A stretch of 44,754 nt of DNA, the filler included, from Jimgerdemannia flammicorona (Eukaryota): NCBI GenBank assembly GCA_003990765.1. It is 2 parts of 2 records of this genome, joined end to end, with 100 filler letters (N's around TTAATTAATTAA, not from the genome) between each part and the next. Parts side by side here need not be neighbours in the genome. Positions count along the whole stretch, not along the records: positions 1 to 22,328 come from RBNJ01001298.1; 1 more part is not named here. One strand, 5' to 3'. A program made the translations under genes and the position numbers. The first letter of the stretch is position 1, and each line of letters opens with the position of its first letter. A model generated the notes under the pieces. That model had not been told where the DNA came from, did not search any database, and was given only the letters and a program-made list of their open reading frames with translations. Positions 20 to 35,019 of this stretch are shown here, piece after piece.

Positions 20-3000
20 CAAACACTATCTTTACCCACTCACCACTCTGTTCACATATCCCTTCCATCAGATGGCAACATCGCCCACCTTGGGGTCCCC
101 ATCCAACCCACCACCCAGTCGGCAGATCTGCCACCAACTCCTCCTATCTCAACAACTTCTCCCATATCTCTATCTGTTTCCTCCCCTCAAAAATGAAGAG
201 CCAATGTCCAGCCAACCCCACCCATACTGCCACAACCCACCCTACAGTAAGCCACCCATTGCCAACACCTCCCATAAGTCTAGATTCCAAATCTTCCCAG
301 TGACCTCTCTCTCCATCTGGTCTCCTTTCAACCTCTAGCCAGTTCCCTATAGCTATCCAAAAGTCCCCCAGCACCTTACATTCTCCCAGCCAATGTTCTG
401 GCATTTGTACAAATCCCCCAGCTTGCCCAACATTATAACACTCCTCACAATCCAGCTGACCACTATCCACCAGATGCCTAGCACAGAAATTCAACATAAC
501 ATTCCTCTACAACATTCGCCACCACACTACCCAGAACTTGGGAGGTAACCACCCCCACACCTCTGTACTCCAGGACCAGATCCCTGCCCAGTCCCACTCC
601 TCACCAATCCTCACCACCTGCCAACTACTCGGCCAAAGATCCTGACCAATTTACTGCTGATACTCCACTCTATCCCCAATATAAAACTCAGCAAGCAGAA
701 CTCCCCCTAATAGCAGACAGTCCCATCGCTACATAGCTGGGCCCCATACCACCTCCCCCTCATTGCCATGCCAGCACAGACCTATCTGGTATGCTCCATC
801 AACCACTCCCCACCAGAAGCCCTTATACTGTAGCCATTGGCTTTCATTCAGACCCATCAAAGAGAGTAGATCCCCTGAGAATCCCCAGGGGGAGACTCTC
901 ATCTCCCACACCTTCTGCATCAGCAGTACCCAACCTCCACCCTGTAGCTCAATAGTCCTTCTCAACCACCAAGCTCACAGGCAGTATAATTGCTTAGAGA
1001 AATCAATAAGGCCCAGTCCTCCCCTAAGCACTGGCTTGACAAGAGTGTCCCAACTGATCTGGGCTCTTTTACCTGCCCAAATCCAATCCCTAGCTAGTTT
1101 CATCAGCCTCTTCACCACCCAAGCTGGGAAGTCTAAGTGATATATCACATACCACAGCTTGGGGAATCAGTATACATTCAGAATCACTACCCACCCCACC
1201 AGGGAGATGTGATGACCCCTCCAACCTTTTAGAGTCTCCTCCCAAATGTCCACCCTCCTCTCTCACCACATCTATGACAGGACTGATCTATATACAGAGA
1301 GGAAGATACTGAGATACTGCACCACCTCTCCTGTAGGGACAATTGTTCCAATGACATCCCCTCCTACTAGCCCATTCTCCAACACTATTGTCTCACACTT
1401 ATGCCAGTTGAGCCTTGCTCCAGAGTGTGCCTCATACCACTCCACTGTTTCCCAAAGAGCCTTTACATCTGCTACTGATTCAAGTCCAACTACCATATCA
1501 TCTGCAAAGGCCCCCACCTTCCACTCCACACCATACACAGAGAGCCCAGCCACCCTTCTATAGATCCTATCCATCAAAGGTTCCAAGGAGAGAGCATAAA
1601 GGATAGGAGACAGTGGGTCCCCTTGAGTGACTCCCCTCCCCAAGAGGAATGCCAAACCCCTGTGACCATTACACAACAGTGCTGCTCTACTCCCTTCCAA
1701 CAAACTTAACATAGAGGCCCGAAGCTGTGGTGGAACACCAATTCTGTCCAGCACCTTGCCCAGCCAAACCCACTGAACATAGTTGTAGGCCTTCTTCTGG
1801 TCCAAAAAAACCAGTCTACCATCTAGTCTACAGGCCCGGGCTCCTTCAATAATGCCATGCACCCAGGCAGTTCCATCTCTGATAAGTCTACCACCTACAA
1901 AGCCCTGCTGCTCCTCACCCAGCACCTGTTGAGCAGCCTTCTGTAGCCTCGCAACAATCACCTTAGTCACTAACTTCTAATCCATATCCAGAAGCATGAT
2001 TGGTCTCCAGTTCTTCCAATCCTCATGCCTGCCCTTGTCTTTGTACAGTAGTGCCACCAGCCCTAAGTCCTGCTCTCCAACCCACACACTATTTAGAATA
2101 ACATAGTCGCAGAGGGTAGCCATCTCTTCCAGCATTCCAGGGACTTTTGCCATCTTCTTCCAGAAGTCCCATGGTAACCCATCCTTCCCAGGCACTGTTC
2201 TAAGCTTAGTCACTACCAGGACTCCTTGAATCTCCTCCTCCTGAACTGGTAAGATCAAGTCACCCAGTCCCTACCTGTGGTGGCTCCCACTCCTCCAGTG
2301 CATTGCCAATTGCCTCTGCATCAGTACCCCCTTCTTCCTCACTCTACAGATCCCACCAATTCTCCTTCAATACTCCCAGGATCTGCTGCATACCATGCAC
2401 CAACTCTCTCTCAGCATCAAAGACCCTATCCCACCAATATCTCACCTACCTGGCCTTAAGGAGTCTAGACAAGTACCTAGTAGGCCGCTCCCCCTCCTCA
2501 AGCCCCTGCCACCTTAGCCTGGCAGCCATTCCTTACATATGAGTCTCCTCCTCCTCTCTCAATACCTGTTGTAGTTCCACCACTTTCAATTTCGCCCTCT
2601 CCAACCTCCAATCCTCCACCTCATCAGATATAAGCAAATCTGCCCACTCCAACTGCAATCCCCTCAGCCTATTTGAAGCATACTGTACTCGCCTCCTCCT
2701 CTGTCTCCCTGCCTCTCTACCAGCTCTACCCCAATAGACCTTCGCAGCCTCCTTCAACCTTATCCAACAGACACCCACAGATAAACCCTCTTGCCTCCAG
2801 AGCGGAACCTTTACCTGGATGTCCTCCACCCATGAGTCCCACAACCCCTTCTCAGCCAGCAGAGAGGAGTTAAGGCACTAATGTCTGGGTCCATCTCTAC
2901 TCCCCCCAAACTGTCTCTACCCAAGCAGTCTCCAGTGATCAGACCACAGGTACCACACCACCTCCAAAGTCTTCCAGACATCAGTACCCTAACATTCAGC

Positions 3001-3615
3001 TGTCAAAATCCAGTCAATCCTCATCCCTAAGTTATTCACCCAGTGCATGTAGACCCTGGAGTTGCCCCACCATGTTTGGCCCATATCCCCTAAGGAGCTA
3101 AGGCTTTCCACCTCCTCCCATACATCAAGACTACCATTTCTCCTACTAGTATTTCTCCCTCCATCAGTTCTATCCAGCCGCAAATCTCAAACCATGTTAA
3201 AATCACCATTAAGAATATCGACCCCTTCCTCCAAGAGAATGCTCTCCTCTAGTAACTCCTTAATCTATGCAATCCTCTCTCCCCTAGCTGCTGGATAGTA
3301 ACAAGAGCCCACCCTCACCGATTCCCACCCTGGCCAGTGCCATTCACCCTAGACCAACCGATCTCCCCAGCTCTTAATTCCCTCCAAATCTCCTTTATCC
3401 TTCTTTACCAGAATCACCACCTTTCCAAACCAAGTGGTAGCCCCACCCCATTCCCTAGTCCACTCTACCCAATCATCCTCATCCTCACACTGTATATCCT
3501 GTAGTAAAAAGAGATCAGCCTCTAATCCCTTTAGCCATGTAAAAATGTTCTTATACTGCATAGATCCCCAAAGGCCATTCATATTGAGAGAGAAAATACT
3601 AGTTGTACTGTTCAT
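20..3615 (-). pseudogene. LINE ORF2: AP endonuclease + reverse transcriptase, disrupted
   Basis: SLNMNGL...LFLLQD and RIDWIL (APE); PGKDGLP, WKNWRPIMLLDMD, QQGFVGGR, LDQKKAY, RGVTQGDPLSPILY, AFADD (RT). Confidence 0.93.
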
Positions 3616-5760: not shown

Positions 5761-5875
5761 GCATTTTGAAAATTAAGGTTCAAATTGAACTTTGAATCAA
5801 ATTGGACCCTTGATTCAATTGAATCAAATCAAGTTTGGGCCAAATTCAATTTGATTTGATTCACTGAGAGCACTA
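5761..5875 (-). mobile_element. Terminal fragment of the hAT-type MITE family (one end only)
   Basis: Reverse complement of the first ~115 nt of the MITE at 7471, ending ...GAGAGCACTA; the other end is missing on the LINE side. Confidence 0.75.
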
Positions 5876-6649: not shown

Positions 6650-8156
6650 AAGCTATTTATAGGTTTTGACGCTGTCTGGGTAGTCTTTGATGACATCACT
6701 ATCGATGACATTATATCTGATGAAGTAGTTATCTAGAAAAAGTGGTTTGCAGATTACTTCTCCTTATTTACTGAGGTAATAATACATTGGGACTTCATCA
6801 TCATCCCATAGAATAGTATCATCTGTTTTATATGCTGAATAAGATATTGGTAGACAGAGGAGAGGTGTATCATCTTCACTTTCATTGGATTCACTGTCTG
6901 TATATCTTCTATAAGTTATAGCACTATGAGTCATGGGGTTGTAGTAAGCTGGCAGCTATGGTTCATGTTGCTCATATTCAGATAGTGGAGTGGTTGATTC
7001 GATCTTAAGGGTTGTCTGGAGGTATAGATTGTATTCTCTAGTCTCTTCATTATAGTTGAAGTAATCTGGGGTGAATGTGGGTTAGTATTCATGCCAGTGG
7101 TCATTATTCCAATAGATCTCATAGGTGGTTATAAACTGTTGTAAGTTCATTGGCAAGGTTGGCGAAGTGATCAGGGTTGGCAGAGATTCTTGGCTGGAGG
7201 TTATGTCAGCATCAGAGGGATCATTGTCTTCTGCTTCATCTTCATTGAATCAGATTATATCATAGATATCCTTCATAGCATATCCAACTTGAGGTATTTA
7301 CAGGATATGGTTGTTGGGGTGTGGGAAGGTTCTGTCTGTGGTCTAGACATACTCAAGGTACTTGTGGTTGAGTTCTTGTATCATATCATCAATTTGACTA
7401 TAGGATAGGGTAGCAACTATTTCTGTAGTAGTAACTTAGAGGTAGAGAATAAAGGTGCTATACTTATAGATAGTGCTCCCAACAAATCGAATCGAATCAA
7501 GAGTCTAATTCGATTTGATTCGAATCGAATCAAAGGTCCAATTCGATTCGAAGTTTGATTCAAACCTTAATTTTCAAAATGTAATAATGACGAAAACTCA
7601 TCCAAATTTAATGTATTTTAGCTTGTTAGATTCACCATATTAATGTGATTCTAACAAGCTAAAGTATATTAGATTTGGATGAGTTTATGCTGAGTTATTG
7701 CATTTTGAAAATTAGGGTTTGAATCAGACCCTCAATTCGATTCGACTTTTGATTTGATTTGAATTGATTCAAATTGAAAAATCCCCAATTCGATTTGACT
7801 CATTTAACCCTCAATTCAATTCAATTCAAATTGATTTGACTTGTTTGGGAGCACTACTTGTAGAAGAGTTCTCTGTATTTGTGGACAATGAGTTTCTGGT
7901 GTTGAGACATCTGGGTAATGTCCATATCATGGTGGTGTTTGACCATATCTTCCAGGAGGTGGCCAATCTGATAGTAGCTTGAGATTTGTCTGATTTGGTA
8001 GGCCTCGCTAAGCATGTTCAGGGCATTCCATCACACTTTCACAAAGTAGAGGAGTGCTAGACTATAGATATTCATGAGGGGCAGAGGGGGTGTGGCTCAA
8101 TTGACAATGGTATTCCAAATATCAGCACAGATGCAGTTGTAGATCTCAGTGGTCAT
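6650..8156 (-). pseudogene. Decayed intronless ORF of unknown function (ORF B), split by a MITE
   Basis: aaacATG at 8156; reads MTTEIYNCICADIWNTIVN...HQKLIVHKYRELFYK up to the MITE, then continues to ...DDTILWDDDEVPMYYYL...DYPDSVKTYK with scattered stops. Confidence 0.4.
7471..7856. mobile_element. hAT-type MITE, near-palindromic
   Basis: TIRs TAGTGCTCCCAACAA.../...TTGTTTGGGAGCACTA; 8-bp TSD CTTATAGA/CTTGTAGA (one transition); internal hairpin centre. Confidence 0.92.
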
Positions 8157-8479
8157 GTTTGTATATGTTCAGAAGTTGTGGTTGTTATTTATTGTAGTTC
8201 TCTGTTCGACACATCTCAGTGCTCAGTATATATGTATGTATTTGGTCCTGATTGGTAAGATTCTATTGTGTAAATCTTATATTCTGTGACTTTGTATTGA
8301 CTCAGCTTTGTGCACTGTGACTTTGATTTGACTCAGCTTTGTGATTAAGCAGATGATTTTCAGATTTGTTCAGAGGTTGCATGTGTAGTGCTCCAAACGG
8401 ATGGAGTTGATCTGGATGAGATTCAATTCAGATTCATCATGTGATGGATTCGAATCAACTCGGATTGGTCTCGTGATCT

Positions 8480-8620
8480 GATCTGGATTAATCCAGATTG
8501 ATCCAGATTGATCCATCCAGATTGATCCATCCAGATTGATCCAGATTGGTCCATCCGGATTGGTCCATCCAGATTGGTCCATCCAGATTGATACATCCAG
8601 ATTGATCCATCTAGATTGAA
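8480..8620. repeat. Left subterminal 14-bp tandem array (ATCCATCCAGATTG)
   Basis: Multiple tandem copies directly visible; typical position for transposase-binding subterminal repeats. Confidence 0.8.
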
Positions 8621-8849
8621 ATCTTTGGTGACATCACCCTTTCTTTTGTTCATTTCACTCTTGTTTTTTTTTTCCTACTGTACTTTGGTAACATCACCCT
8701 TTCCTTTGCTCCCTCTCTTCTTTTGTTCTTTTCTTTGTTCTTTTTCTTTGTTCTTTTTCTTTGTTCTTTCCTGCCACATCATGAGCAAACCAAACTGCAG
8801 CCCTTAATTCATATGTATGTTAGTCCAGTCTACTCATTTTTCACCCTAC

Positions 8850-10935
8850 AATAATTGTCAAAAGAGAGAGTATTCAAGGTGGAAATGCACTCTCTGCTGA
8901 TAATGTTAGATTCTTTCTTATATAGATAGTACACAAGCTGCTCATCGAGAGCCAAAGGGGTGATGGCAGTAGTGGTGGCAATGGTAATAGTAATGGCAGA
9001 GATGAGGGAGAATTCTGGCAACAACTCATGGTGGCCCTTTGGACCTTGGAATTCACAGACCTCACAGCTATATATGTGACAGTCTTTTTGGAGCAGCTGA
9101 TAGTAGATGTAGGTTGCTCACTCAGCTGCAACTTGTTTACTTGTGTTTATTTAAATTTCCCCAGCATGATCCAATTCATCTTGTGCTTTTCTTAGGATCC
9201 ACAGCTCTATGGTGAGATCTGCTGACTTTATTTGTAACATCTGGTCAAGATGAAGAAAGGCTGGTGGACGTTGTGGGGCATGCCTTTGGTGGCTGAGCTG
9301 TTAAGTCAATGCATCACATGGTGGAGGTCTCAAAAGGAACAGAAGCAAGCCTTTGTGAGCAATCTTGTGCAACTTGTGCAACTTGTGCAACTTGTTGGCA
9401 TGCAACTCATTGGCATGCAACTCATTGGCATGCAGCTCACTCACTCACTCACTCATGCTCTTTTTCTGAAATACCCATCTCTGTGTTTTATTTAATTTCA
9501 TTTTTACATGGTCTCCCCCTAAAAAACACCCACACCCATATACAACCTGCCTGCATACAACCCGCCTACATGCAATCCACCTGCATGCAACCCGTCCACA
9601 TGCAATCTGCCTGCATGCAACCTACCTGCAACCCATCCGCATGCAACCCACCCACACACAACCTGTCTGCATGCAACCTGTCTGCATGCAACCCGTCTGC
9701 ATACTTATCTTAGTCTCTCAGATCAGGGCTCAGTTCCATTGGAAAGGAGAGTTCAAAGTTACTTGTGTTCAACCACATTCGGCATCTGATCAAATAGAGA
9801 AATTTGAGAGCAAGATGTTCAGTATGAGCAGTACCAGCATTGTTATCAAGGCTTGGGGGTCTACATTTGAATCAGAGTCAATTGTACTCAACCAAGGGGT
9901 CCATTGGCCAGCAGGAATAACCAACAATGAAGAGAACTATATCTTTATTAATGAATGTGGAGAGGTGGTTGTGATGGTGATAAGAAATCTCTATGGTGAC
10001 GAGCTTTGCCACCACATCAATGAGATTTGCAAGGATTGCATCAAATACTGGGTGACAGGAAAGAGGGGGCAAAAAAAGTAAGGAGGGAGGGTTTGGATGA
10101 GAATTGGGTATACTGCAATACTGGTGAAGGGTGGGTTCCAGAGTTCCGAAATTCCCTACACTTATCTCCCTTTTTTTTTAACCCCTCTCCAGATAAATCA
10201 CACTCTTCGCTGACATACTCTTTTTGATACAATTCTAGGGATACACAAGATTCTGTACCCCTACTGGAACTTTAGAAGTACTATTGAAGAGCAAACTGTG
10301 CATGAGCATGACATGGCCAGTGTGGTGATGGCAGCTATGATCTGGGGTTCTTTGAGCAGATTGGTAGAGCATATGGCAGGTCAGCTTGGTGGTGGTCTCG
10401 GTGCAGCTGTACATATATTCTTGGTACAATTTAGCATGTCATATGAGGTGAGGAGCTCTGCTTTTTCAGGGTGCTGCAGTCCGGGGGGTTTCTGCCCTCC
10501 CGCATACAAAAAGGACTAACTGGTTGCCATCTGTTTCAGCAGGTTTCTAAGCCAGAGCTCCCAGGGCTAGACTAAGGACAGGTATCCACTAGTACAGTCT
10601 GGCAGTATAAGGTCCTGGGTCAAGGGTTCACCCAACTGTATGCTTGCATCACATCAGAATATGTCAGGCACAACCTTTCTCTACCCATACACACAGATAA
10701 CAATATCACCTCGGTAATGTTTTACATCTCAGAAAGGAAGGGCCCAACCTGGGAGAATAGTGGCAGAGTCTGGTATGATCTCACCTACAGTTTCGGGGTC
10801 CCATTTGTAGCCAACATGGCTGTCCTATTCCAACCATATGACCACCACAATACTGTTGCCTTCAAGGAGAGCTCGGACACAACAGTCATCACACTCACAA
10901 TGGATGATAGGCTTATCAAGGCCTGGGACCAGTGA
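8850..10935 (+). pseudogene. Spliced cargo gene, putative 2OG-Fe(II) dioxygenase (TET/JBP-like), decayed
   Basis: Exons ~8852-9108, 9196-9354, 9722-10077 and 10239-10935 join in consistent phase through GT-AG introns. Product has YIFINECGEVVVMVIRNLY, GDGSYDLGFFEQIG, GFTQLYAC...PIHTDNN (HxD, 10690-10698), SVMFY, FGVPF...AVLFQPYDHHNT (distal His ~10846). Several stops are explainable by C>T. Confidence 0.6.
9360..9705. repeat. Intronic minisatellites (CTTGTGCAA; TGCAACTCATTGGCA; CCTGCATGCAAC-type)
   Basis: Short tandem arrays filling the 9355-9721 intron of the cargo gene. Confidence 0.8.
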
Positions 10936-11249
10936 GTGGAGCAGTTTTTGTGAGGGTTAGGCAATCTTTTGTGAGGGTTAGGCAGCTATTTTGTGTAGGT
11001 TAGGCAGCCATTTTGTGCAGATTGAGTAGTCTTATGTGGACTGGGCACCTCTTATATAGCACTAGCTTAGCTGTTATGTAGGGCCCTACCAGCCCCTTGG
11101 CCCTGCTCTATAGTACTACTGGTGCAGCACTGTAGTGCAGGGCTGGGGTGCCCATGAGACCCGAACCAGTGACTTTAACTGCCAGAAACACCCTCCGACC
11201 ACCAGAAGTACCCTCCAATCACCAGAAGTACCCTCTGCCCTAGACTTCT

Positions 11250-11705
11250 TGGTAGCTTGGGGCTGCCCCTATACTGCTGGTAGAGGGCCACAAATTTTGC
11301 ATGCTCCCTCCACCTGCTCCACCCATCCTGGATACTTGTGGCTTAGGGCTGCCTCTTGCTACTGGTGGAGGGCTACAAATTTTACACACTCCCTCTGCCG
11401 ACTCCATGCCTGCCAACCCACCAACTGACCCTGCCCACTGACCCGGACACTGACAGCTTGGGGCTACCCCTTGCTGCTGGTAGAGGGCCACAAATTTTGC
11501 ACGCTCCCTCTACCTACTCCCCTGATCTGGACATTTGTGGCTTGGGGCTTCCCCTTGCTGCCAGTGGAGGGTCACAAATTTTTGTATGCTCCCTCTGCCG
11601 ACCTACTGACCTGCCTACCAACCCGCCCACTGACCCAGGCACTGGCAGCTTGGGGCTGCCCCTTGCTGCTGACTGAGGACCACAAATATTGCATACTCCC
11701 TCTGC
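11250..11705. repeat. Five imperfect ~60-bp repeats with variable spacers
   Basis: GCTTGGGGCTGCCCCTTGCTGCTGGTAGAGGGCCACAAATTTTGCATGCTCCCTCT-like unit at ~11254, 11341, 11456, 11540, 11649. Confidence 0.8.
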
Positions 11706-11856
11706 CACTGCCACCAATCTCACCTCACTTGGACCGCAAACTCTGGGCCAAGTCCTCAGGTTTTTTTTTCCTTTTTTATTATTTTGAAAGGTATTAATTT
11801 GAAAGGTATTAAATATTCCACAAGGCTAACCAACTTATCTACAGACCCGCTGAATT

Positions 11857-12924
11857 TTAGTGGCCCAAGCCCCACCAAGACTTCAGACACATATATGCCC
11901 AGATTGTCTCAGCATTCAGCATACATCTCTTTGGGGCAACAAGGTCCACCCCACCTGAGAACACCTGCTTGACAGGAGCACTAGAGGCAGAAATCACCAG
12001 GTAGTCCTGAGCCATACCACATAGGCTGGGGAAGTCCATTTGACACAGCTGCACACCCTGGTGAGTAGAGCAGTGATTAGATTGGTGGGTTAAATTGGCC
12101 CAACACCCACCTGACAATACCCATCTGACAACCCACCTTCCACCAGTTGAGCACCTCCATGCCCTCCAGCAGGACCATGCAGTCACTGGTAAGGTAAATG
12201 GTAAGTTTGTCTATTGATAGCAGCTCTTCCACTAATAGCTCCCTCTTCCTCTTTCTGCTGAAATAAATGTGGGACAGAAGAGAACCCTTGGCATATTCAT
12301 CTGAACTTTGGCCAGAACCTTGCAGTGGTGCATAGTTTTTCCAGTACACTTCGATTATAGCCTGCTTGGTTCTCTCAATGAAGTACTACTTCCAGTCCTG
12401 ATCTTTATGGTATTGTAGCTTTAAGTATGAGTCCAGCACTGTTTGAAGAAAAGGAGAGTGAGTTTTTGCAGGGTTTCCTCTGTTTTGGAAGGGGCAATGG
12501 CCATACCATACCTGTACTGATTGAGTATATGGCAGTATCTGTTTGGGAGTAGTATTTCCTGAGCTTGCTTAGAGCAACCTCCACAGTATCTCTCTGATCT
12601 AGGCTTAACTGTAAATCACCACAACCCTCCAGCCTGTCCTCAAGCTTGTCATCTAACCAGTCAATCAGAAGGTTGTATACTGGTATCACAGAGCTTATTG
12701 TCAGGTCATTTGTTTGACTATATCCTTTGTACAATCATCGAAACACTAGTAGTTATATGTGGTGAGGTATTGCATTATGCAGAGGCAGACAAAATGAGTA
12801 TAGAGCCAAAGCAACCACCACTTACTTCCAAAACACTGACAACATTCCTAAGTATGTCCCACTCGCTTTCACCTAGAGCCTCGGCCTATATTTCCTTATC
12901 AGCAGCCATCATTGAATCTATTGG

Positions 12925-12967
<43 letters not shown>

Positions 12968-14422
12968 AAATCTTCCATCATCCAAAACAGTTGCTTCAGC
13001 TGACTGAAGAAAAAAAGAATGCATACTACAGTAAACTCCAGCATGCGCTGGATCATTGCAAATGTTGAGTTCCAATGTATATAGATGTCCAATATAAACT
13101 CTTTTGGGGCTAAACTGATTGCCCTACACTGTACAGCAAATTTGTCTTATCATTGTGGGGATGATCGGACCGATACAACCAGTTTGTGCAGCTTGGAAAT
13201 TATACTCAGGGCCCCTCCTCTCTCTGATGTTTAGTCTACATGCATAAGATAGTCCTGAACAGCAAGGTTCAGTACATGGGCCTGGCATCACACACAGCAG
13301 CTTTCTGTACTGAAGGCCATGTTTTCCTGTTTGAGGCTGGCTGCTAAAACTTGGAAAAATGTTGAGTTATTTGTGGCATTGTTCGTCATAATGGCCAAAA
13401 TCTGTACTTGAAATATTCAGTTGGCAAATTATGCAAAAATAAATAACTAACAAAATCTGTTCTGTTTAAGGACCTCTCTCAAAACACCGACCTGATGGCA
13501 AGCCCCCCTTTTTTTACCTTGGTTGTGATCCCAAGCTCTTGGATACAACTAATAAAAGCATCTGCGATGTTGTCTCCAGAATGAGGGCCAGCAAGTTTGA
13601 TGAAGTCAAGGGTGAGAGATTTAAGCTGCTAATTGAGGTCAATCTAATGACCGGTAATACCCAGAAACAAAATTATATTGGGGAATATCCATGTGTTGAT
13701 CGTAAATGAAATTTTGCCTGCCGAATTCTGCTTATTGAATGTAAGGTTAAATTGGTGAGCTCTTTTATATAATTCAGCTTACAAAGGACATGGTGCTGCC
13801 CTTATTTTACCTGAAGTGTCTAGCAGAGATTGTCATACTCCTTCCTATAGGCCTCCAGGACATCTTTATAAATAGTATTGGTACTTGGCAAATATAAATC
13901 ATACTTGAGGAGGCTGCAATTGATCACTCTCGATGGTTGTGAATGGCTGGTCTGTGCACACAATCTAGTGAATGAGCTGATTTTGAAATTCTGCCGAAGA
14001 GTATGGCTAAATATTTTTAATTAAATGGCATTGTTGGTACAGAAATGGTTGGGCAATCAGATAAATATACCCACCACAGCTTGGATATCGATTTTATTTG
14101 TCTCTGTATTCTTTTTGATTTTGTCAGAGTACTTGTCTTTTATGTGTCAATTTATGTTTGAGGTTATACCACCAAGCATTTTGAACTTCTGACTGGTGCA
14201 GTTTATGGGGGTGGATGAAACAATATCATGTGTGTGTCAACAAGTCAATAGGTGTATCTTAATTTTTTACCTGCAATAATTACAAATAACATCATCTCCT
14301 ATTTTAGCATAATGTTGCCAGATTTCAGAGTGAGGATTGCATAGAAGGTGTGGAACTATCAGGGATATTTGACTTGAAGCATCATCGGTACTGTAAACTG
14401 TTGAAGACTGATCTGTCGACAT
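11857..14422 (-). pseudogene. hAT transposase (BED finger, DDE/RNase H-like core, hATC dimerisation domain), multi-intron, decayed
   Basis: SEIWQHY...VICNYC (BED); DIYIHWNSTFAMIQRML (cf. TRWNST); SSVIPVYNLL; KLRKYY; FPSLCGMAQDYLVISASSAPVKQVFSGG...KRCMLNAETI...MCLKSW (hATC). Confidence 0.92.
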
Positions 14423-14524
14423 GTATGTTTGTGTGTTTACATGTGCATGTGTGTGCATATGTGTATATTGTGTATACGTGTGTATGTAATGTGTTGTGGA
14501 CACATCCGACATATGAGTCATGTG

Positions 14525-14760
14525 GAGGATTTGAATTGGAGGATTTAGTTGAAGGATTCAGATGAGGATTCAGATTGGAGGATTTGAATTGGAGGATTCA
14601 AATTGGAGGATTCAAATTGGAGGATTCAGATTGAGTGATTCAGATTGAGTGATTCAGATTGAGTGATTCAGATTGAGTGATTCAGATTGAGTGATTCGGA
14701 TTGGGGTGGTTCAGATGGGTGATTTGGATGGGGCAATTCGGATGGTGCAATTCAGATTAA
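14525..14760. repeat. Right subterminal 14-bp tandem arrays (GGAGGATTCAAATT, GAGTGATTCAGATT)
   Basis: Tandem copies directly visible upstream of the right TIR. Confidence 0.8.
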
Positions 14761-14861
14761 TCTGAGTTGATTCAGATGGCTTCAGATTTGAGATTCAGAT
14801 TGAACCATCATGTAATGAATCAAATCCGGATTTGATTCAAATTGACTTGTTCAGAGCACTA

Positions 14862-17559: not shown

Positions 17560-18900
17560 TAGCTCTAACCAAACCTTATCTCACTTTATTTTACTCTAAT
17601 ATACTCTCTTCTCTCTATCTCTACCCTCTTAAAAATTATCAGATTATTAACCACCTCAATCTACCTACTACTCCTCTTATATATCTCTTCTACTAGTCTA
17701 ACAGAATATCTATTATTAATTTCTTCTACCTTACTATTCTCTCTTCCAAAACTATCTGTTTCTTATTTTGAATATATAGCCAGTAGTTAGCTAATTCCAC
17801 TTATATTACTAATATCTACTCAATAGTAAGTCACTTATTATTGATATACTCTATCAACTACTCTCTTAAGTTATCTTATCTTCTCCCCTCTCTGTTATTT
17901 TACTTATCTTCAGATGATCTCTAACCATTACTCAGAAAACTCTACTCCTCTAGCCAATATTCAGATATCTGTAAAATCTTTCTCTTTTATCCTATATTAT
18001 AATATTTATTATATCTAAAAACCCCACCTTCTATCAGATATTCTGATCAAAAGTTCAATATAATATTTCTCTATAAAGTATACTACTACACTATTTAAAA
18101 CTTTAAAGAAAGCCATCATTATATCTCAGTACTCTAAAACCAGACTCCAGCTCAGTTCTATATCTTATCTATATCTGCTAACTATCAGTCAATTGATTAT
18201 AAATTCTATCTCACCTCTTATTAATACTCTATATTAATATTAATATCAAAGTCCATCAGTGGGGAATCACTCAACAGAAGCCTGTCTCACCTAGTACTCC
18301 CAACAAATCGAATCAAAGGTCCAATTCGATTCAAAGTTCGATTTGAACCTTAATTTTCAAAATGTAATAACTCGACGAAAACTCATCCAAATTTAACATA
18401 TTTTAGCTTGTTAGATTCACCGTATTAATGTGATTCTAACAAGCTAAAGTACGTTAGATTTGGATGAGTTTATGCTGAGTTATTGTATTTTAAAAATTAG
18501 GGTTTGAATCAGACCCTCAATTCGATTTGACTTTTGATTCAATTTGAATTGATTCGAATTGAAAAATCCCCAATTTGATTTGACTTGTTTAACCCTCAAT
18601 TCAATTCGATTCAAATTGATTTGACTTGTTTGGGAGCACTAGTCTCACCTCCATATTGCAGGTCCCTATTGTACCTTCTCCTCATTACTACACCAACATA
18701 AACTAATATAGTGAGCTCTCTTTATTACCCTCTATCAGAATCCTCTATATCTCAAGTACCTGCTTTTCAGTCCAACCATCAACAATAAATCCCCTGAGGA
18801 ACCTCTAGGGGAGAACCTCACCTCCCAGACCTTCAGCAACACTTAGACCACTCTCTCTCATTCTTAATATTAATATCTTTTAGCTCACCTAAGATATAAT
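17560..18900 (-). mobile_element. Highly eroded relic of a related LINE (ORF2 3' part)
   Basis: 18790-18838 (CCCCTGAGGAACCTCTAGGGGGAGAACCTCACCTCCCAGACCTTC) matches 872-918 of the first LINE; same C/T-rich plus-strand bias. Confidence 0.65.
18292..18641. mobile_element. hAT-type MITE, second full copy
   Basis: Near-identical to 7471-7856 apart from a short deletion; perfect 8-bp TSD GTCTCACC (18284-18291 / 18642-18649). Confidence 0.95.
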
Positions 18901-19964: not shown

Positions 19965-20440
19965 CGATATGTGCGCAGACGGGTGAGGTGTGCGGGCTGG
20001 CCAGATACGTATAGGTTGGCGGGCTGGCGGGCTGGCTGGTGATATACGTGCGGGAGTGCGAGATGCTGTAGGTTGGCGAGTTGCGTGCGGGCTGGCGAGA
20101 TGCGTGCGGGATAACGAATTGTATGCGGGCTGGCTGATTATATACGTGCGGGCATGCGGGCGTGCGAGATGCGTGTAGGTTGGCGAGATGCGTGCGGGCT
20201 GGCGATATGTATGTGGGGCGAGATGAAATGCGAGATGCGTGTAGGATGGCGAGTTGCGTGCTGGTTAGCGAGTTTCCTGGGGGCTGGCGAGTTGCATGGA
20301 GGCTGGCGAGTTGCGGCGGGTTGGCAAGTTGCGTGCTGGCAAGTTAGCGGGCGTGCGAGATGCGTGCGGGCGGGCGAGATGCGTGCGGACGGGCAAGATG
20401 CGTACGGACGGGCGAGATGCGTACAAACGGGCGATATGCC
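19965..20440. repeat. CpG-rich degenerate minisatellite (GCGTGCGGGCTGGCGAGAT-type)
   Basis: Many imperfect tandem ~19-bp units; accounts for the low-complexity ORFs in this interval. Confidence 0.85.
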
Positions 20441-20704
20441 GCTATTATTACCGCTTGTCTCTGTTTATTTGCGTCAGTTTTATTGGTCCGCCAGAAACGG
20501 TGCCAGGGATTTTAAAGTACATGCGGTATATCCGTCTCAATCTATCAAAATAACAAACTTAATTATGTGTGAATACTAATTTGTTTTTTTACAAACCAAC
20601 GAAACCTTCATTTTTTTTTTCGATGGATGGGAAGCTTCGACCAAATTTCCCTCCACCTTCTATCCACGCACCATCCCCCATTCCTTGTATATACCCCATA
20701 TTCC

Positions 20705-22273
20705 TCACGCCCTTCCATTCTCAATATCGTTCATGGGGACAGCCACGAACTTTCTCTTTCCGCCCCCGAACCCGCTCCTCCTTTTATTATAAAAGTATGC
20801 GAAGAGTCCAATGCACGCGATAGATGCCACCATCAGACTTGCCATGATACCGCTGAGTTGTGTCGTCCGCATGTCCTCGTCCGTCGTCTGCATGTCCTCG
20901 TCCGTCGTCTTATTGGTGTCCCCCTCGGCGGGCACCTTGCCGACCGGGTGCTCGACAACGGGTTTTTTCGTTTCCGTTCCGGTTTCGGGAACCTTCGTTT
21001 CCGGCTCGGTGTGATTGACGGGTTCGACGTCGTCACCGAGTGGTTCCAGGATTGCGACGGGTAGGAGTTCTTCCGTTGCGAAGGAGGGCGGGTACTTGGG
21101 CGAGCGGACCTTCACGGCGGTTGAGTTGGTGATAGGAGAGCCGGTGACATTGAAGGGGGATTGCTTGATGACGGCATTGGCAATGGCGCGGTGGCCGCCT
21201 GTAGAGGGAGGTGAAGTGTGAGATGAAGTATGAGATCGGGAAGAGATGGTCGGAGACGACCGGAAAAACAAACAAAAGAACTACGTACCGCCCGTCACGT
21301 GGAAGACATCCCACCACAGAAACTCGTCGATGGGCTTACTACACGTGCCCGTGCACACTTGCCAGTAAGCATTCTTGACATCCTCGAATCCGTACATGGC
21401 CGGGTCATCGACGATTTCGCTGAACAGGGTGTGGATGTCTACGACGGCGACATCAAGACTGCCGCCCACGGCCTCGACGAAGACCGGAATCTCGCTGTCG
21501 ATCAGGGCGTTGTATTCGATAATGAAGTTCTTGCGGTCAGCTTGGCCCGCGAACAACGGAGAGAGGTCGGGTGGTGGGAGGTTGGGGAGGAGGATGTGCT
21601 TGGCATGAAAAATCGTGTGAAGAGTGGTCTGCGGAGAGAACCGGGGAAGAGAGTTAGGTATGGGTAAACTGCGTGCGAGAAAGGATGGAGAGAAAAGAGG
21701 GGGATACGAACAATTTGTTTCTTGACGCAGTCGAAGACGGCTGCGAGGGTTGCTTTGGTGGTGTTGAATTTCGTGATATCTGGTAGGGGGGTCGAATGAA
21801 CCAGAGGGATCGGGACAATGAAAGAAGTGAGTAAAGTATAAAAGCGAGGTAGATCCACAGTATAAAACCGATTCGGATGTCGGTAATCCCCGCTAGCGTA
21901 TCAAACATGTACTTTTTCTTCCGACCCTTCGAACAACGCGCTCTCTCCGCCCATGCGTATATCTGTCGCACAACCCCCCTCCCCTTCCTCCCCACATCAC
22001 CATAATTATCCGCGCAACTACCACCTGCCGATACGCCAATATCATTGATTCCGATCCACACGGCGTACACGGTCTCGTCTGGATCCAACTTCAGATTTTG
22101 CTTGTAATAAATGCTCAGCTGGTCTCGCACGGCGGGCCGGTCGGCCAGCTTAACAACGCTGTTGTCACAGGTTGCGCCCGCGAAAGCGAAACCGTAGAGC
22201 TGGGCGTCCCAGGCGTGCGCAAGATCTTCGACCCAGATCGGGCCGTTTGTTTTCCGCTTGACATTACCAGTGT
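20705..22273 (-). CDS. GDSL/SGNH lipase-esterase (CE16-like) with Pro/Thr/Glu-rich stalk and C-terminal TM helix; 5' exon lost at the contig end
   Basis: Exons ~22273-22025, 21779-21712, 21628-21289, 21198-20705 with GT-AG borders (first donor uncertain). Motifs DTGN, TNGPIWVE, FAFAGAT, VWIGINDI, LWWDVFHVTGGGH; TM LSGIMASLMVASIACIGLFAYFY followed by NKRR. CpG intact, no stops seen in the exons. Confidence 0.88.
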
Positions 22274-22328
22274 CTGTGGTGGATGAAGGCTGTTAGGTCT
22301 GGGGAACAGAAATTTGGGGGAGGGGGGG

Positions 22329-22428
22329 NNNNNNNNNNNNNNNNNNNNNNNNNNNNNNNNNNNNNNNNNNNNTTAATTAATTAANNNNNNNNNNNNNNNN
22401 NNNNNNNNNNNNNNNNNNNNNNNNNNNN
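22329..22428. other. Artificial contig spacer (N44-TTAATTAATTAA-N44)
   Basis: 100-bp symmetric spacer with stop codons in all six frames; flanking pieces are 22328 and 22326 bp long. Confidence 0.95.
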
Positions 22429-22645
22429 CTACTGTGACTCCTTTGGTTGCCCATGAGGATCTTGAGGCCAATTGTCCATAATGCCCAGGTGGTACAGCGA
22501 GTGCGATCTGTAGGTCAAAAGTCCTGGTACTTCTGGGTCGGATTCTTGCTTGGTAGGGAAGGCAGAGGTCATAACCAACTGATCCTTCTGTTTGTGCAAG
22601 AGGTGGCTGTGCCCAGGGTGAAAGCAGCTTGACCTGGATAATTGG
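22429..22645 (-). CDS. dUTPase domain (N-terminal part) of the retrotransposon polyprotein
   Basis: IQVKLLSPWAQPP...GSVGYDL (motif I)...IALAVPPGHYGQLASRSSWA (motif II); cut by the spacer. Confidence 0.9.
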
Positions 22646-23739
22646 TTGAGCTTTGAGGAATGGCGCTTCAGCTGTTGCCATTGTAGGTGAGAAGTCCATG
22701 CACTCCAGTTTGAAGAAAGGCCAGTGAGCTCCTGTCTTTGAGTTTCTTGTGTAATTGAATCCAGTCTTTCCTAGAGGGTCCAGGGCTTCCATAAAGATGA
22801 AGGTAAGATTTATATCTTCTTTTCCTTGATGAGGGCGGCAGTACCAGCGAATGATGGCAAGAACTTCCAATGGTAGGTCCCAGATAGAGGTCTTGCTTTT
22901 GAACTTGCAATCTTCTTCATGGTTGATTTCTTTGCACTTCCGACAGGCCCAGCGAATTTGAGGTTCTTGCAGGGTGGGATCCTTTCTCTTGACTCAGCTC
23001 TTGTAGACATCTTTACTGAGGTGAACATCTCGATGTTCACACCAGTAGCAGGTAAAGGTTTTTCCACAATCACAATGTCCCTTCTTGACAAAGTCTTCAT
23101 TTCGCTGTTTGACCTCCCTACTGGTAGGGAATCTCTTCCGATATTTGTCATAGGTGGGCTGTGTGATCTGGAGAGCTCGGGTGATAGTGTAAGAGCTGTT
23201 GCTTTCTCCTTCGATGGTAAGGGACTCAAATGTTTGGCGGGCGAGGATCTTCTGTCCTTCCTTATAGGTCTTCTTGAAGGTCTTCGGGGTTGGAGGTTGT
23301 ACTCGACTGTGGGGTGGTGCTTGCTTCAATTCATCCTTGTCATCAATTTCTAGCATTAGAACCTTCTTGAGATCCAGGATTCGGCAATTGCTGCAATCAT
23401 CTCTTGGTGAGTGGAAGCTGATGAAGTGTTCGCATATGCCTCGACGAAAGGCTCGCATGATCCGATTTCTACCAGTGGTGGTGGTGGTTGAGCAGAAGGT
23501 CCTGCAAACTCGAGTGCTGCCCTTGCATTAATGGCTCTATCAATGCTTTCTTCCAGGCCTTCGACACCAATAACTCCAATGAAAGAGTCTTCTTGTTCGC
23601 TTTCTTGGTCCCTTGGGGCATCGAAGTCACTTCCTAGTTCTTGCAGGAAATTGGCCTCGCTTTCATCCTCAGTAGTAGTGGGGGTGTCGCCATATCCTTG
23701 CCATTCTGTTTCTGAGGCTTGATTCGTCTTTTTTGATAA

Positions 23740-24100
23740 TCCTTTCGAGTCAATGGGCACCTTGTGCTTCTGTCCATGAGTGGAGAAGACCAGGAGTTGT
23801 TTCTTGATATCTACATTGGCTCCCACCCGGCTTAACCAGTCAGTTCCCAGGATCAGGTCATAGGAGGTTGCGGGGGTCATGACGGCCTTGGGTACATTGA
23901 GGCGGGCCTTTCCAACTTGAATGGGGATGTCTCTGACAAGTCCAAGGGGTGTGGAAGCTGATCCATCGGCCATGATAACTCTTGCTTTGGTCTCTTCATC
24001 TATTCCCCATCCAATTCGCTCCAACATCCTTTGGGTGATGATGCATACTGCTGCTCCAGTATCGACGAGAATTCTGGCATTTTCACCATGTACTTTTCCA
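23740..24100 (-). CDS. Retropepsin aspartic protease domain
   Basis: ILVDTGAAVCII...VIMADG...YDLILGTDWL. Confidence 0.92.
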
Positions 24101-24647
24101 TCAGCAAGTCTTGTAGATTGATGTTCATGTCACTGGCTCTCATGGACTGTGTGGATAGTGCTAGGTTCTTGAGTGTGTGGTCCTTGGACTGGAAGTCTCT
24201 TAGTATCTTCCTTGGCTTCTTTCAGGAATTTTCGCCTGATCTCCGGTGCATTCTTGAGGACTTGCTCAACTGTAAGGCCAGCATTCTGTAGGTGGATATA
24301 TTCCCAAAGTGAGGCTGCTGCATGGGGCTTGCTGCTTCTTCGGTGTCTTGGTCCCTTGGGGTGTAGTCTTTCATTTCTGATGGGCATTTCATCAGCTGAA
24401 GATTCTATGCTCATATGATCATCTTCTTCAAGGTCTGGCAGGGTAGAGCTGGGGGTTGTCCTAGATGGTCCGGCTTCTGGTTCAGAAGTATCTTTTCTAA
24501 CTCGCTTCTCCTGTTCTTGTAGAGTGTCTGAGGAAGAATGGCCATGTCATGGATGCTTGCCGGTGGATACCGTTACTGGCAGTTGAGGTGGGGGATTCCT
24601 TCGAGGTCTTCCCTGTCCTCTGGTCTCTGCTGGGGCAGCTTCCCATG

Positions 24648-26603
24648 TCACCTTGGATGGAAAGCTTCGAAGTATGGGTAGGTGTCATCTTCTTGACCAT
24701 GGAGCCAGGCTGCTTCTTCTTCCATTTCCTGAGTCTCTTCATCTACCTGAAAGAGGTTGACATTTCTGTCATTGGACTGGGTGGGATGGTTCCTTGGACA
24801 ATTCCTCTGGATGTGACCTTGATTTCCGCAGCTGAAGCAGGTGGGACCATAGGAACCAGTCACTGATGAGGCTGTAGTTGCAACTGGTAGTGCAGGGGCA
24901 GGACCTCTGTTGTCTTGTTGCCGGTAGTCTGGTCTGTTATCATGATGGTAGTCTTGTTGTCTTCTACCTTGGTTGTTCAGCTGGGCAACTGTGATGGCCA
25001 GGTCCTTCATTTGCTTAGTGAGCATTGTCATGGGGTCTTCTTGAACTCTTGATGGTGGCTGCTGCTGTGGTTGCCTGAATGGAGTCGGATTTGTGGGTGC
25101 TGGTCTGTTCTCATAGTTGGCTATCTGGGCTCTGAGGAAGGCATTCTCTTGCTCTATGGTTGTTCCTCGGGTCCTTGGGGTTTCGGCTCGGATTGGCTCA
25201 GGATAGCCTTGTACTTGTTGTACTGGTCTATAATCTGCTTCCCAGCATCCTTGTGTTCTAGCAACTTGCTGTTCAATGTTTCAATATCCCATCCTGATAA
25301 CTTGCCTTCGGAGTTCTGGGTATAAGCCATTGAGGAAGGTAGTTGAGGCTAGGGCCAGTTGGACTGCTGGTTGAAGGTTCACCTTGATTATTTGAGCTTG
25401 AATCTGATAGTAGAAACTCTTGGGGGTTTCATTGGCAGCTTGGCTCATATAGGTCAAAGCCTCCTGTGCTTCTTGTTGGCACTCGAATCCATTGAACTGG
25501 GCACGGAGCCAGGCTTTGTGAATCATGTACCTTGCTACATGGTTCCTATCAGGTTGAAGGCCGTCATTCAGTTCCTCTATATGGATTTCTCCTCCAGCTT
25601 GCTTGGCTTGATTATACCTCTGTAGGGCTGGTCCTCTCAGGAGCGACTCCACAATTCTGAGTTTTCTTGCAGTATCCCATTGTTTGGCGGCTGCTTGAAC
25701 TTCGATTTCTCCAAAGAATTCCTCGATATCTTCATTGTCTGTACTATGGAACTTCTGAAAGTAGCTCATGTCTGGCTCGTCTTCACTATCTGAGTATTGT
25801 TTAGGGGTAGGGGATCTGGCAGATCCTCGAGGTGATGGGAAAGGTGGTGGTGCTAGTACTTGATGAACTAGTGGTGCTGGCAGAGGGTGGTGTCTTGGTG
25901 AGAGTGAGGGTAATCTGGCTCTTCTAATTAATGCTGGGGTTGAAGTCCTGGGAAGTGGTAGAGATCTTCTGATAGACTGGTGATAGTGGTGAGGTGTGAG
26001 TGACCAGGGTACTGAAGTTCGGGCAACTGATGGTGGGAGTGGACTAATATAACTAATAGTGAGTTCATCTGCCCCTTGCTGTTGTGAAGTAGTGAGGTCT
26101 TGTTCGCCTGGTTGCTGCTGTGGGTCAGTGTTGCTGTCTGGATAATAGTATAGGTTGAATTCGTCCCTTTGATGGTCTGATCCCCAATCGTCGTCTTGCT
26201 CTGGTTGATATGGATGATAGTCCTCTTCTCCTTCTAATGTTTCGAAGTATACCCGGTCTAGTAGAGTGACTCGAGTGACAACAGTAGTGATGTAGTCACT
26301 TCTGTCTGAGTTCTTCCTATGGATAAGGGTCTGATACTCCTCGGAGATATCCTCTTCTTCTTCTTCTTGGCCTAAGTCTTGGATCTGAAGGGGCGGTTCT
26401 GGTTGCCCTCTGAGTCATCTCCTTTCTCTTGAAGTCAAGCCATAATCTGGGTCACTTCTTTCTTCTGATTCAGTTTTCTGGCTACTGGTGTTGAGTAGGG
26501 TTCTGGCTACTGTTCTGACAAGGGTGTGGGCTTTCTTTTCTGCTGAGGAGGGCTGTTGCTGCCCCTGGTTCAGTTGCTGACTTGGTCCTGCTAAGTTCTC
26601 CAC
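24648..26603 (-). pseudogene. gag with long N-terminal extension; in-frame TGA stops at 26415, 25281, 24648
   Basis: Single frame from 26603; capsid-like KFHSTDNEDIEEFF...LRGPA...FLNGL; knuckle CFSCGNQGHIQRNC. Confidence 0.85.
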
Positions 26604-26651
26604 TGTAGATCGCTGGGTTCTTGAGCCAAATGGTCAAGTCTTTTGAAAACT

Positions 26652-26669
26652 TTCCCAGTTGAGCCCCCA
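26652..26669 (-). promoter_or_regulatory. Primer-binding site, tRNA-Pro-like
   Basis: TGGGGGCTCAACTGGGAA, 3 nt after the LTR's terminal CA; similar to the tRNA-Pro PBS TGGGGGCTCGTCCGGGAT. Confidence 0.75.
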
Positions 26670-26672
26670 AAA

Positions 26673-28112
26673 TGTGGCGTTGGTTATGTATAATGAACTT
26701 TGACTGCACAGCTCAATGTATGCCACTTGGTGAAGCACGCGATGTATAACTGAGTGCGTTGGTGACGTTCGCAGGTCGATGGTCACGTGACAGGTCGTCC
26801 GATTCGTGCGGCAATTGATAATAGAGTAGTGGGACTTCGATTGTTCGTTGGCTCAGGACGTCAATGGCTCAATTGTTTAGTGGATAAGGGCGGCGAACTT
26901 GAATTTATGCGGCGACAACGGGCTTGCTCTTTATGCGGTCAATTAAAGCGGTCCATGGCGCAGTAGGTCAGGAATTGGAGAAGCGGAGGTTGACAGCTTG
27001 CTCATCCGTCTTGGTTAACTTGAAAGGTTTCCTGGCGGTCATTCGGGTCTTTGGCAGTTGTTCTTGCTAGCTGGCAGGTCTTGTATGGGTATTCTTGAGT
27101 TTCCGGGTTTTTTTCGGGTCTTGAATCTCGAATGGCGGTCGAATGGCGGCAGTCCGAATGGCAGTCTGGTCTTGAATCCTTGGCTGGGTCTCAGGTCTCG
27201 AATGGTGGTCTGAATGGCAGTCCGAATGGCGGTCTGGTCTTGAATCCTTTTTGTGGCAGCAGTCTTGTAATGTTTTCTTTCTTTCCGTGGCAAGAGAAAA
27301 TTCTTTAACTCAAACTTCCAAGCGATCCATTGCTCTAGGTTGTTATCTTGTTCTCAGAATTTATCTGGTCTCTTGGAGGCAGTGGTTATTTCACAAAACC
27401 AATTGACTCCAAGAGACCGGATAAATTCTGAGAACAAGATAACAACCTAGAGCAACGGATCGCTTGGAAGTTTGAGTTAAAGAATTTTCTCTTGCCACGG
27501 AAAGAAAGAAAACGTTACAAGACCGCCGCCACGAAAAGGATTCAAGACCAGACCACCATTCGGACTGCCATTCGGACCGCCATTCGAGACCTGAGACCCA
27601 GCCAAGGATTCAAGACCAGACCGCCATTTGGACCGCCGCCATTCGACCACCATTCGAGATTCAAGACCCGAAAAAAACCCGGAAACTCAAGGATACCCAT
27701 ACAAGACCCGCCAGCTAGCAAGAACAACTGCCAAAGACCCGAACGACCGCCAGGAAACCTTTCAAGTTAACCAAGATGGACGAGCGAGCCGTCAACCTCC
27801 GCTTCTCCGATTCCCGACCTACTGTGCCATGGACCGCTTTAATTGACCGCATAAAGAGCAAGCCCGTTGTCGCTGCATAAATTCAAGTTCGCCGCCCTTA
27901 TCCACTAAACAATTGAGCCATCGACGTCCTGAGCCAACGAACAATCGAAGTCCCGCTACTCTATTATCAATTGCCGCACGAATCAGACGACCTGTCACGT
28001 GACCATCGACCTGTGAACGTCACCAATGCACTCAGTTATATATCGCGCACTTCACCAAGTGGCATACATTGAGCCATGCAGTCAAAGTTCATTATACATA
28101 ACCAACGCTACA
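26673..28112. repeat. ~1.44 kb spacerless inverted repeat: two head-to-head LTR copies (26673-27395 and 27396-28112)
   Basis: The arms are reverse complements over their whole length (mirrored ORFs 27039-27293 and 27492-27770) and differ mostly by transitions. Confidence 0.95.
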
Positions 28113-28384
28113 ATACATATTATATACAAGATAATGCTACACATAATCAGTATAAAGTTTTGCAAAGAATTTGCATAAAGTGAAAATATAGTGCTAAATA
28201 TTGTGCAAAATTCTGTATATAGTATTCTACTGTACAATTTGTATAGATTTTGTATAGATTTGCTAAAGACATTAAGGCTGCAGTTTTTAAAGCCTCAAGG
28301 GCTATGCACTTACTGAATAAGGAACCTGCTACAGCAAGTCTTAGCCACTATTAGAATAGTGCTCTATTTGGAACAAGTAATTAA

Positions 28385-28505: not shown

Positions 28506-29415
28506 ACAGACCCAGTGTTATCTGATTTATTTCTAAAATTGCTGATTATTAAAAGGCCTCACAAGAATTATCCTACTAATGAAAAAATATTGTACTAATA
28601 TTTTGAAAATAACTAAAGACTTTAGCCAATATAGTGACCATATATCAGAAGAAGAATGTAAAGAACTATAAATACTATATAACTAAATCAGATGTGTTCT
28701 GATAAAGAAATAATTATTACCCTTTTTCTCTATTTCAAAATATTGACTATATCTTCTATATACTATAGTAGAATTAAATTAAAAAGATCAAGATTATGAA
28801 ACTTGAAATAAGGGTAATTAAGAAGATACTATTGAATGAGTTTATAATAAACAAATTGATACCAGCAAATAAATGATAAAGAATTATTGCAAAAATTAAA
28901 AAGTATGAGTATTTTGATATAATTATATATATAGACTGCTCCTTCTTCATAATTAGTATCCAGATCAGTTAGTGAGATAAGAACTATAATATCAGAAAAG
29001 TATGATATACTGTAGAAATTAACTATAGTATAAATTTACTTATTATCTAGTAAAATCACTATTATAAACTATTACTGATTTTGACTCTATAGCAAATCTT
29101 ACTATTTATTATACTCTATAAGTAATCTTGATAGCTCTTAACTGTAAGAGTTTATTTAATATATATAGTAGAATTAAGACTAGTTAATTATATAATTATT
29201 AATACTATTGATGAATATATAAAGAAGAAAATTCTATCTATAAGATGTACTGATAATATACTTGATAATTATATAAGAGAAGAAATATTAAATATATAAT
29301 AATATTGTATTAGAGTTTTTCTGCAAATAGTATTAGTAATTTATATAATAATATCATTCTTATTATTAATATATATAATATTACAGTAGAGCCTTTATAG
29401 CAATCTTATAAAAAG

Positions 29416-31420: not shown

Positions 31421-31599
31421 TAGTTCAGGGTTGACTGGAATATATACTTTGTCTTGATAGTATATGAGATTGTCCTTGATGGTATACTTTTCCTTGAATT
31501 CCTTGGTATTTCTTTGTAGAACCAAAGAGTCTTGTTCATATGCCTTCTTGATCTGATTGAGGAATTCAGGTACTATGGTGACTTGTAAAATTATGACAA

Positions 31600-33472: not shown

Positions 33473-33511
33473 TGAATTGGCTTGGTTCTCAGCTATACTT
33501 GAAACTTTGTC

Positions 33512-33925: not shown

Positions 33926-33928
33926 TTC

Positions 33929-35017: not shown

Positions 35018-35019
35018 AG

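Follow-up and report, generated by a model that had tools for sequence, protein, structure and literature searches.

Does a hAT transposon in the fungus Jimgerdemannia flammicorona carry a DNA-base-modifying enzyme of its own? The question is raised by a 44,754-nt stretch of DNA from this genome (assembly GCA_003990765.1; hereafter the window), in which a unit at 8386-14861 holds a hAT transposase and a second, spliced gene that an initial annotation read as a TET/JBP-like dioxygenase. Our analyses favour the core of that reading. We consider it probable that the unit is a dead autonomous hAT element of a family with TAGTGCTC termini and 8-bp target-site duplications (TSDs), and that its four-exon gene of ~362 residues represents a small fungal protein family. 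This family most likely consists of divergent TET/JBP-like Fe(II) dioxygenases, which look closest to the PE-type of transposon-borne fungal TET.

The 6476-bp unit is bounded by inverted copies of the octamer TAGTGCTC, one at 8386-8393 (plus strand) and the other at 14854-14861 (minus strand). Eight copies of the octamer are present in the window; the mean in shuffled sequences is 1.68, and none of 100 shuffles reached eight. The left terminal inverted repeat (TIR; TAGTGCTCCAAAC, 8386-8398, plus strand) and the right one (14849-14861, minus strand, GTTCAGAGCACTA as read on the plus strand) agree exactly over the octamer (8/8) and at 11 of 13 positions when extended, comparing the left end with the reverse complement of the right. 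Both mismatches are transitions. The likeness of the two ends continues past the TIR, with TCATCATGTGATGG on the left corresponding to CATTACATGATGG in the reverse complement of the right end. Subterminal arrays of ~14-nt repeats lie inside each end, at 8477-8637 (family D1) on the left and at 14550-14764 (families D1 and D4) on the right. Octamer enrichment and the terminal match bear out the inverted hAT ends that had been proposed at these two positions.

Sibling copies reveal how the family inserts. A miniature inverted-repeat transposable element (MITE) at 7471-7856 has TAGTGCTC ends and is flanked by the 8-bp TSD cttataga / cttgtaga (7/8), and a second MITE copy at 18292-18641, whose left end has decayed to TAGTACTC, is flanked by the perfect 8-bp TSD gtctcacc / gtctcacc. 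From these duplications (8/8 and 7/8) we conclude that the TAGTGCTC family makes 8-bp TSDs, as is usual for hAT elements. The two MITEs are 94% alike over 268 nt. Solo TAGTGCTC ends are also found at 5868-5875 (minus strand) and 28357-28364 (plus strand), and these two further lone ends indicate that the family has been repeatedly active in the region.

The transposase occupies the minus strand at 11857-14422 and could be read only across three frames, with many stops and frame changes. Its hAT C-terminal dimerisation domain (PF05699) was matched at 11857-12210 (E 5e-8; 33.1 bits, cut-off 21.4), and a weak zf-BED match (E 0.06) lies at ~14270-14330, near the N-terminus. The transposase core, read with X at stops, gave no Pfam match, and stops are abundant in all its frames. 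The plus-strand gene extends no further than 10935, which puts it tail to tail with the transposase, in the arrangement that had been described for the two genes. The spacer between their tails (11267-11719) contains four copies of a ~61-nt repeat (family D8). Together, these observations support a hAT-superfamily element at 8386-14861 whose ends also enclose another, spliced gene.

The structure of that second gene was revised by running tblastn with a 374-aa relative, P0005, on the window and then reading the splice sites. The resulting exons on the plus strand (9280-9354, 9722-10130, 10239-10447 and 10540-10935) join into 1089 nt that stay in frame over 362 codons, with zero frameshifts and with GT...AG borders at all three introns. 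Only two in-frame stops interrupt the model, both TAA (10079-10081 and 10573-10575). Residues 6-341 of the window protein align with residues 7-342 of P0005.

Exon 1 begins at the ATG at 9280 (MPLVAELL...), where its N-terminal residues line up with the beginning of P0005, and ends at the donor GTGAGC; a further in-frame ATG lies at 9250. Intron 1 (9355-9721, 367 nt) is swollen by 15-nt tandem repeats at 9518-9717. Exon 2 encodes GEVVVMVIRN and GYT and contains the first TAA, through which both tblastn and tblastx matches continue. Intron 2 (10131-10238, 108 nt, GTGGGT...TTCTAG) interrupts a Gly codon in phase 1 and has a branch-like GCTGAC at 10209-10214, 24 nt upstream of its acceptor (10238), which confirms the branch site noted earlier. 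Exon 3 (IHKILYPYWNF...FSMSYE) aligns with P0005, with a second relative, P0023, and with exon 3 of L001, a metagenomic homologue described below; it is followed by intron 3 (10448-10539, 92 nt, GTGAGG...TTTCAG). Exon 4, which is 75-76% identical to relative P0001, contains the second TAA (10573-10575), the HTD that forms an HxD motif, SGR as what is left of a GG motif, and DHHNT with the distal His; its natural stop is the TGA at 10933-10935.

This model replaces the exons of the initial annotation, whose summed length was not a multiple of three and which held 11 to 34 stops per frame. Its first exon (8852-9108) has no counterpart in any relative. Its donor at 10077 removed 53 coding bases, including the conserved GYT, where coding continues past the TAA to 10130, and it omitted the intron at 10448-10539. 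The existence of a spliced plus-strand gene was nevertheless correct, as the relatives support splicing and the introns are common to the intact L001. The product quoted with that model was partly right: FINECGEVVVMVIRNL, GFTQLYAC, PIHTDNNITSVMFY and FGVPFVANMAVLFQPYDHHNT lie in the true frames, whereas GDGSYDLGFFEQIG was taken from a wrong one, the relatives aligning instead to the frame IHKILYPYWNF...MASVVMAAM. The HTD and the second His of its proposed HxD...H pattern were read correctly, and the pattern is kept across relatives. The GG motif at 10760-10771 reads SGR (GGC AGA) where the relatives have GG. This loss would be explained by mutation of a CpG that turned GGCGGA into GGCAGA, much as had been suggested, although the change falls one codon away from the proposed spot.

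We searched for relatives with the frame 10576-10935, scored against 1.84 billion representative proteins. Seven proteins were found at E<=0.001, five of them true relatives (P0001, P0002, P0004, P0005 and P0006). The other two, P0003 and P0007, are long repetitive proteins and were set aside as spurious. A word-indexed search of longer proteins with exon 2 returned nothing, the same kind of search with P0005 returned P0023 only, and a profile of alignment A2 found nothing new there. Among sequencing runs, 0.07 of the words were present in one soil-metagenome DNA run, and no RNA run was listed.

A scan of metagenome contigs detected the peptide pattern in 63 stretches, of which two, L001 and L002, encode a relative. 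These two are 99% identical and come from two metagenomes, and L002 carries stops, as decaying repeats do; the homologues thus include decaying ones present in more than one copy. A candidate third locus, L003, offered one 36-residue single-exon match in a bacterial metagenome-assembled genome and was judged to be noise. L001 has an intact spliced frame of 1113 nt with 0 stops, and its protein is 70% identical to P0023 and 43% to P0005. It shares all three introns with the window gene, at equal positions and phases. Two of them coincide exactly in the alignment, and the third lies one residue past an aligned Tyr in each gene, with equal phase; intron 1 is at a common position, intron 2 is the same phase-1 intron in both, and intron 3 corresponds to a phase-0 intron at the equivalent place. 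The window protein is only 26% identical to that of L001, whose GC content is 34% and which shows no CpG depletion. Introns shared despite such low identity and differing composition imply that the gene structure is old and that the family is real.

Beyond the L001 gene, 1.7 kb away, we found GATTTGA-type repeats and a terminus (...GTTGGAAGCTC). This end matches the ends of the window MITEs (...GTTTGGGAGCACTA) with 71% identity over 93 nt by blastn (E 6e-6). The match is suggestive of a hAT-like element around the L001 gene as well, with the limits that the repeats are simple and that the contig holds a single end. L001 also contains a second spliced gene after the TET-like gene (2320-3370, plus strand), which has no Pfam match and no counterpart in the window element.

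What does the protein do? Within the HxD motif, all ten covering rows of alignment A5 have the His and eight have the Asp (HTD or HVD), with Asn (HVN) in the two remaining, P0004 and P0006. The distal His is conserved in 9/9 rows, its context being HG[TS]; the window copy has HTD and DHHNT at these places. A GG motif precedes an aromatic-rich strand. Two queries to a protein-language-model Atlas led to Tet-like families. For P0005 the top neighbour (0.96) is a Basidiomycota cluster with PF20515 in 15% of its members, and a Tet_JBP cluster stands at rank 11. For P0004, the cluster at rank 3 (0.90) is named 'Tet-like 2OG-Fe(II) oxygenase' with 72% PF20515, and the cluster at rank 6 is 31% Tet_JBP.

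The family was also compared by eye with the domain sequences in Table S1 of Kojima 2025 (Biology 14:1741, PMC12730594), a source that was available in part and to which our statements about it are limited. By this comparison, the PE-type and the window family share the same order of features: a GE-V-VVIRN strand, an SAG motif, H-x-acid, then one block with GG, F/Y and the distal HG[TS] in that order, and lastly a hydrophobic strand. The PE-type GELVLVVIRN matches the window's GEVVVMVIRN at 7/10 positions by eye, and over an ungapped block of 39 residues, spanning the GG motif to the distal HG, the match to P0005 is 13/39. Like the window family, the PE-type is hard to detect by sequence profiles, with reported HHpred E-values of 1.4 against CMD1 and 19 against NgTET (PMC12730594). 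The two also differ. The PE-type hallmark is HxE, whereas the window family has HxD in 8/10 rows; the PE-type arginines (AGSR, QRGLAF) are unmatched in the window family; and hAT carriers of PE-type genes are not reported in the available part of PMC12730594. We regard a TET/JBP-like dioxygenase as a plausible identity for the protein and the best available reading, based on the Atlas neighbours and the PE likeness seen by eye. The TET/JBP assignment of the initial annotation is thereby partly supported, by the language-model neighbours and the visual likeness but not by profile models or structure prediction.

Iyer et al. reportedly linked TET/JBP genes to Kyakuja-Dileera-Zisupton and Plavaka elements in 2014. 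Those are likewise fungal DNA transposons with a TET/JBP gene, but they belong to another transposase superfamily and carry another TET type. Kojima 2025 (PMC12730594) describes seven DNA-transposon lineages with TET/JBP genes in rust fungi. These include 20 TET-carrying hAT7 families from six Puccinia species, with 7-bp TSDs and PU-type enzymes. With these carriers in print since 2025, the remark in the initial annotation that no hAT carrier was known is out of date.

Like the window element, hAT7 is a fungal hAT-superfamily transposon with a TET/JBP-like gene besides its transposase. However, its TSDs are 7 bp long, against 8 bp in the MITEs of the window family, and two hAT7 consensus sequences begin with CAACGGTGGG where the window element begins with TAGTGCTC. 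In the text of Table S1 (first 400 characters per cell), TAGTGCTC occurs twice, both times internally and never as a consensus start. The hAT7 TETs are PU-type (GGxMWxxGWRK ... HxDxN ... RxGxSxQ), which the window protein does not resemble. In hAT7-1_PCor, hAT7-2_PCor and hAT7-1_PHor the TET gene lies upstream of the transposase in one orientation, whereas the window genes are tail to tail. As judged from these sequence features and the available part of the paper, the window element appears not to be hAT7; its transposase is too decayed for placement in a clade. We interpret it as another independent hAT lineage with a putative TET-like protein outside the three named types, and Data S1-S4 of PMC12730594 may hold a closer hAT or TET family.

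A more specific proposal is that the family forms a fourth transposon-borne TET-like type. Such a type would have a PE-like layout, HxD, and neither of the two PU/PE arginines; it would be missed by both Pfam models and would ride canonical 8-bp-TSD hATs in at least two widely differing fungal genomes, with introns that predate their split. We put this forward tentatively and consider it possible rather than likely.

Several results weigh against a TET-like enzyme carried by a hAT, some concerning the enzyme and others the element. Pfam searches with the window exons, P0005, P0001, P0002, P0004, P0023 and the L001 exons gave no match at E<=10, including to Tet_JBP (PF12851) and 2OG-FeII_Oxy_6 (PF20515). 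PHROGs and NCBIfam gave no meaningful match, and a profile search of PDB sequences returned 0 matches at E<=10. AlphaFold2 models from alignments of 9 and 14 rows were unusable (mean pLDDT 38.9 and 36.7), and the Atlas recognition value for P0005, 2142, lies below the reliability line of 2300. Before the last conserved strand, the family has L, V, I or T by eye, not the Arg of PU- and PE-type enzymes; the 2OG-binding Arg that the initial annotation could not see is, by eye, not visible at this position in the whole protein family, and not just in the dead copy. An Arg does lie ~21-22 residues past the distal His in 5/6 lineages, ~8 residues after the PU/PE Arg position. The gene may be real and ride the hAT without encoding a TET/JBP-type base oxidase, being instead another Fe(II) enzyme, a TET-like enzyme with another co-substrate, or a non-catalytic protein. 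The failure of all four database searches to connect it with any dioxygenase family at the profile level, the lack of a predicted fold, and the C-terminal and G-x-R arginines not visible by eye (the window has GYT where the PE-type has AGSR and the PU-type GWRK) would all fit. We nevertheless judge this unlikely, as the two independent Atlas queries (P0005 and P0004) indicate Tet-like families and as both HxD...H and the GG motif are retained, spaced much as in the PE-type. The missing arginines could, within a TET-like enzyme, mean that 2-oxoglutarate is not the co-substrate. CMD1, an algal TET homologue, has been reported to use a different one.

On the side of the element, the cargo-bearing copy has no TSD: the sequences flanking 8386-14861 (tgcatgtg / cctatatt) are identical at 3/8 positions, where 8-bp TSDs had been expected, and as a consequence its two ends are not demonstrably those of one insertion. 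Allowing for transitions makes 6/8 positions compatible, which has p ~0.15 by chance (our own calculation, with a probability of 1/2 per position for identity or transition), and this rescue was rejected. A 7-bp TSD, or a 9-bp TIR starting one base outward, gave no match either. A single cargo-bearing copy was examined (n=1), and a transposase was not found within the 3.7 kb of L001. These points leave room for a 6.5-kb composite in which the gene is no hAT cargo, formed by two unrelated hAT ends or by nesting of a second element; the solo ends at 5868-5875 and 28357-28364 show TAGTGCTC ends to be common in the window. This we consider distinctly unlikely, since the ends resemble each other beyond the TIR (TCATCATGTGATGG and CATTACATGATGG) and both bear ~14-nt arrays, a second pair of ends around the gene is not seen, and in L001, from a genome of quite another kind (GC 34%, no CpG depletion), the homologue has a similar terminus 1.7 kb away. 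It is also conceivable that the element acquired the gene passively from its host, by transduplication, and that this passenger does nothing for the transposon. hAT elements can take up host fragments. What we see, however, is an entire gene with introns and a start, not a fragment; L001 and L002 behave like repeats, being 99% identical across two metagenomes with one copy decayed; and published TET-bearing transposons retain an intact reading frame across families (PMC12730594, available part). A mere passenger is the least probable of these alternatives, and we regard it as improbable. The reading that we prefer remains a dead hAT that carried a TET-like gene, and we infer that this gene travelled with the element.

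In intact copies, the enzyme would oxidise 5-methylcytosine (5mC) on the element's own DNA. This oxidation would counter methylation-based silencing as well as CpG decay, and expression of the transposase would thereby remain possible. Such an escape from methylation silencing is the role already proposed in print for TET cargo in these elements (PMC12730594, available part), and we model the putative activity on CcTET, an AG-type enzyme of Coprinopsis cinerea. Oxidation of 5mC and 6-methyladenine has been measured for CcTET, which is given as the sole relative of transposon-borne fungal TETs to have been tested biochemically (PMC12730594). It serves as a model for the presumed activity, while the window family has no detectable sequence match to it (0 PDB matches, E<=10).

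In the window copy, CpG observed/expected across the element is 0.17, with TpG/CpA in excess. The copy is dead, as the initial annotation had concluded, with two nonsense codons in the cargo gene and many stops in the transposase. Strong CpG depletion combined with two broken genes suggests that host methylation and deamination won here. A dead copy also means that the window has no functional material of its own. Across the window, CpG observed/expected is uneven, at 0.74 in 20000-28000 and 0.09-0.30 in transposon-rich parts. Depletion of NCG affects all four contexts, ACG most and TCG least, which differs from the TCG-specific pattern quoted for Pucciniomycotina in PMC12730594 and speaks weakly against a host from that group.

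The rest of the window contains further remnants of mobile elements and genes. Direct repeats of 300 nt (29413-29712 and 35017-35316) are 94% alike and enclose reverse transcriptase, RNase H and integrase remnants on the minus strand (30583-34312). The segment 29413-35316 is a decayed long terminal repeat (LTR) retrotransposon, with CpG observed/expected near 0.09. A second gag/protease remnant lies at 22373-26414. The window includes 88 N, and a run of X interrupts a minus-strand frame at 22373-22993, which places at least part of the N gap near 22400. A near-perfect palindrome at 26673-28112, with two 718-nt arms that are 94% complementary and 4 nt apart, adjoins the edge of the retroelement gag/protease region. 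A LINE-like reverse transcriptase is found at 1272-1976, and part of a transposase of piggyBac-like type (PF13843, E 3e-7) at 37361-38155 on the plus strand. On the minus strand at 40206-42191, a broken gene split across several frames has a fungal-type protein kinase (PF17667, E 7e-42 and 6e-24) fused to a Crinkler N-terminal domain (PF20147, E 2e-15). A weak GDSL-lipase-like frame at 21654-22292 (E 9e-4) falls under the Pfam cut-off.

If our preferred reading holds, the J. flammicorona element would add one more independent capture of a TET-like gene to the many fungal DNA-transposon lineages that carry such genes. Since standard domain models miss this family, censuses of fungal TETs probably undercount. 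With a canonical 8-bp-TSD hAT lineage as the carrier, the finding would strengthen the view that anti-methylation is a recurrent strategy of transposons.

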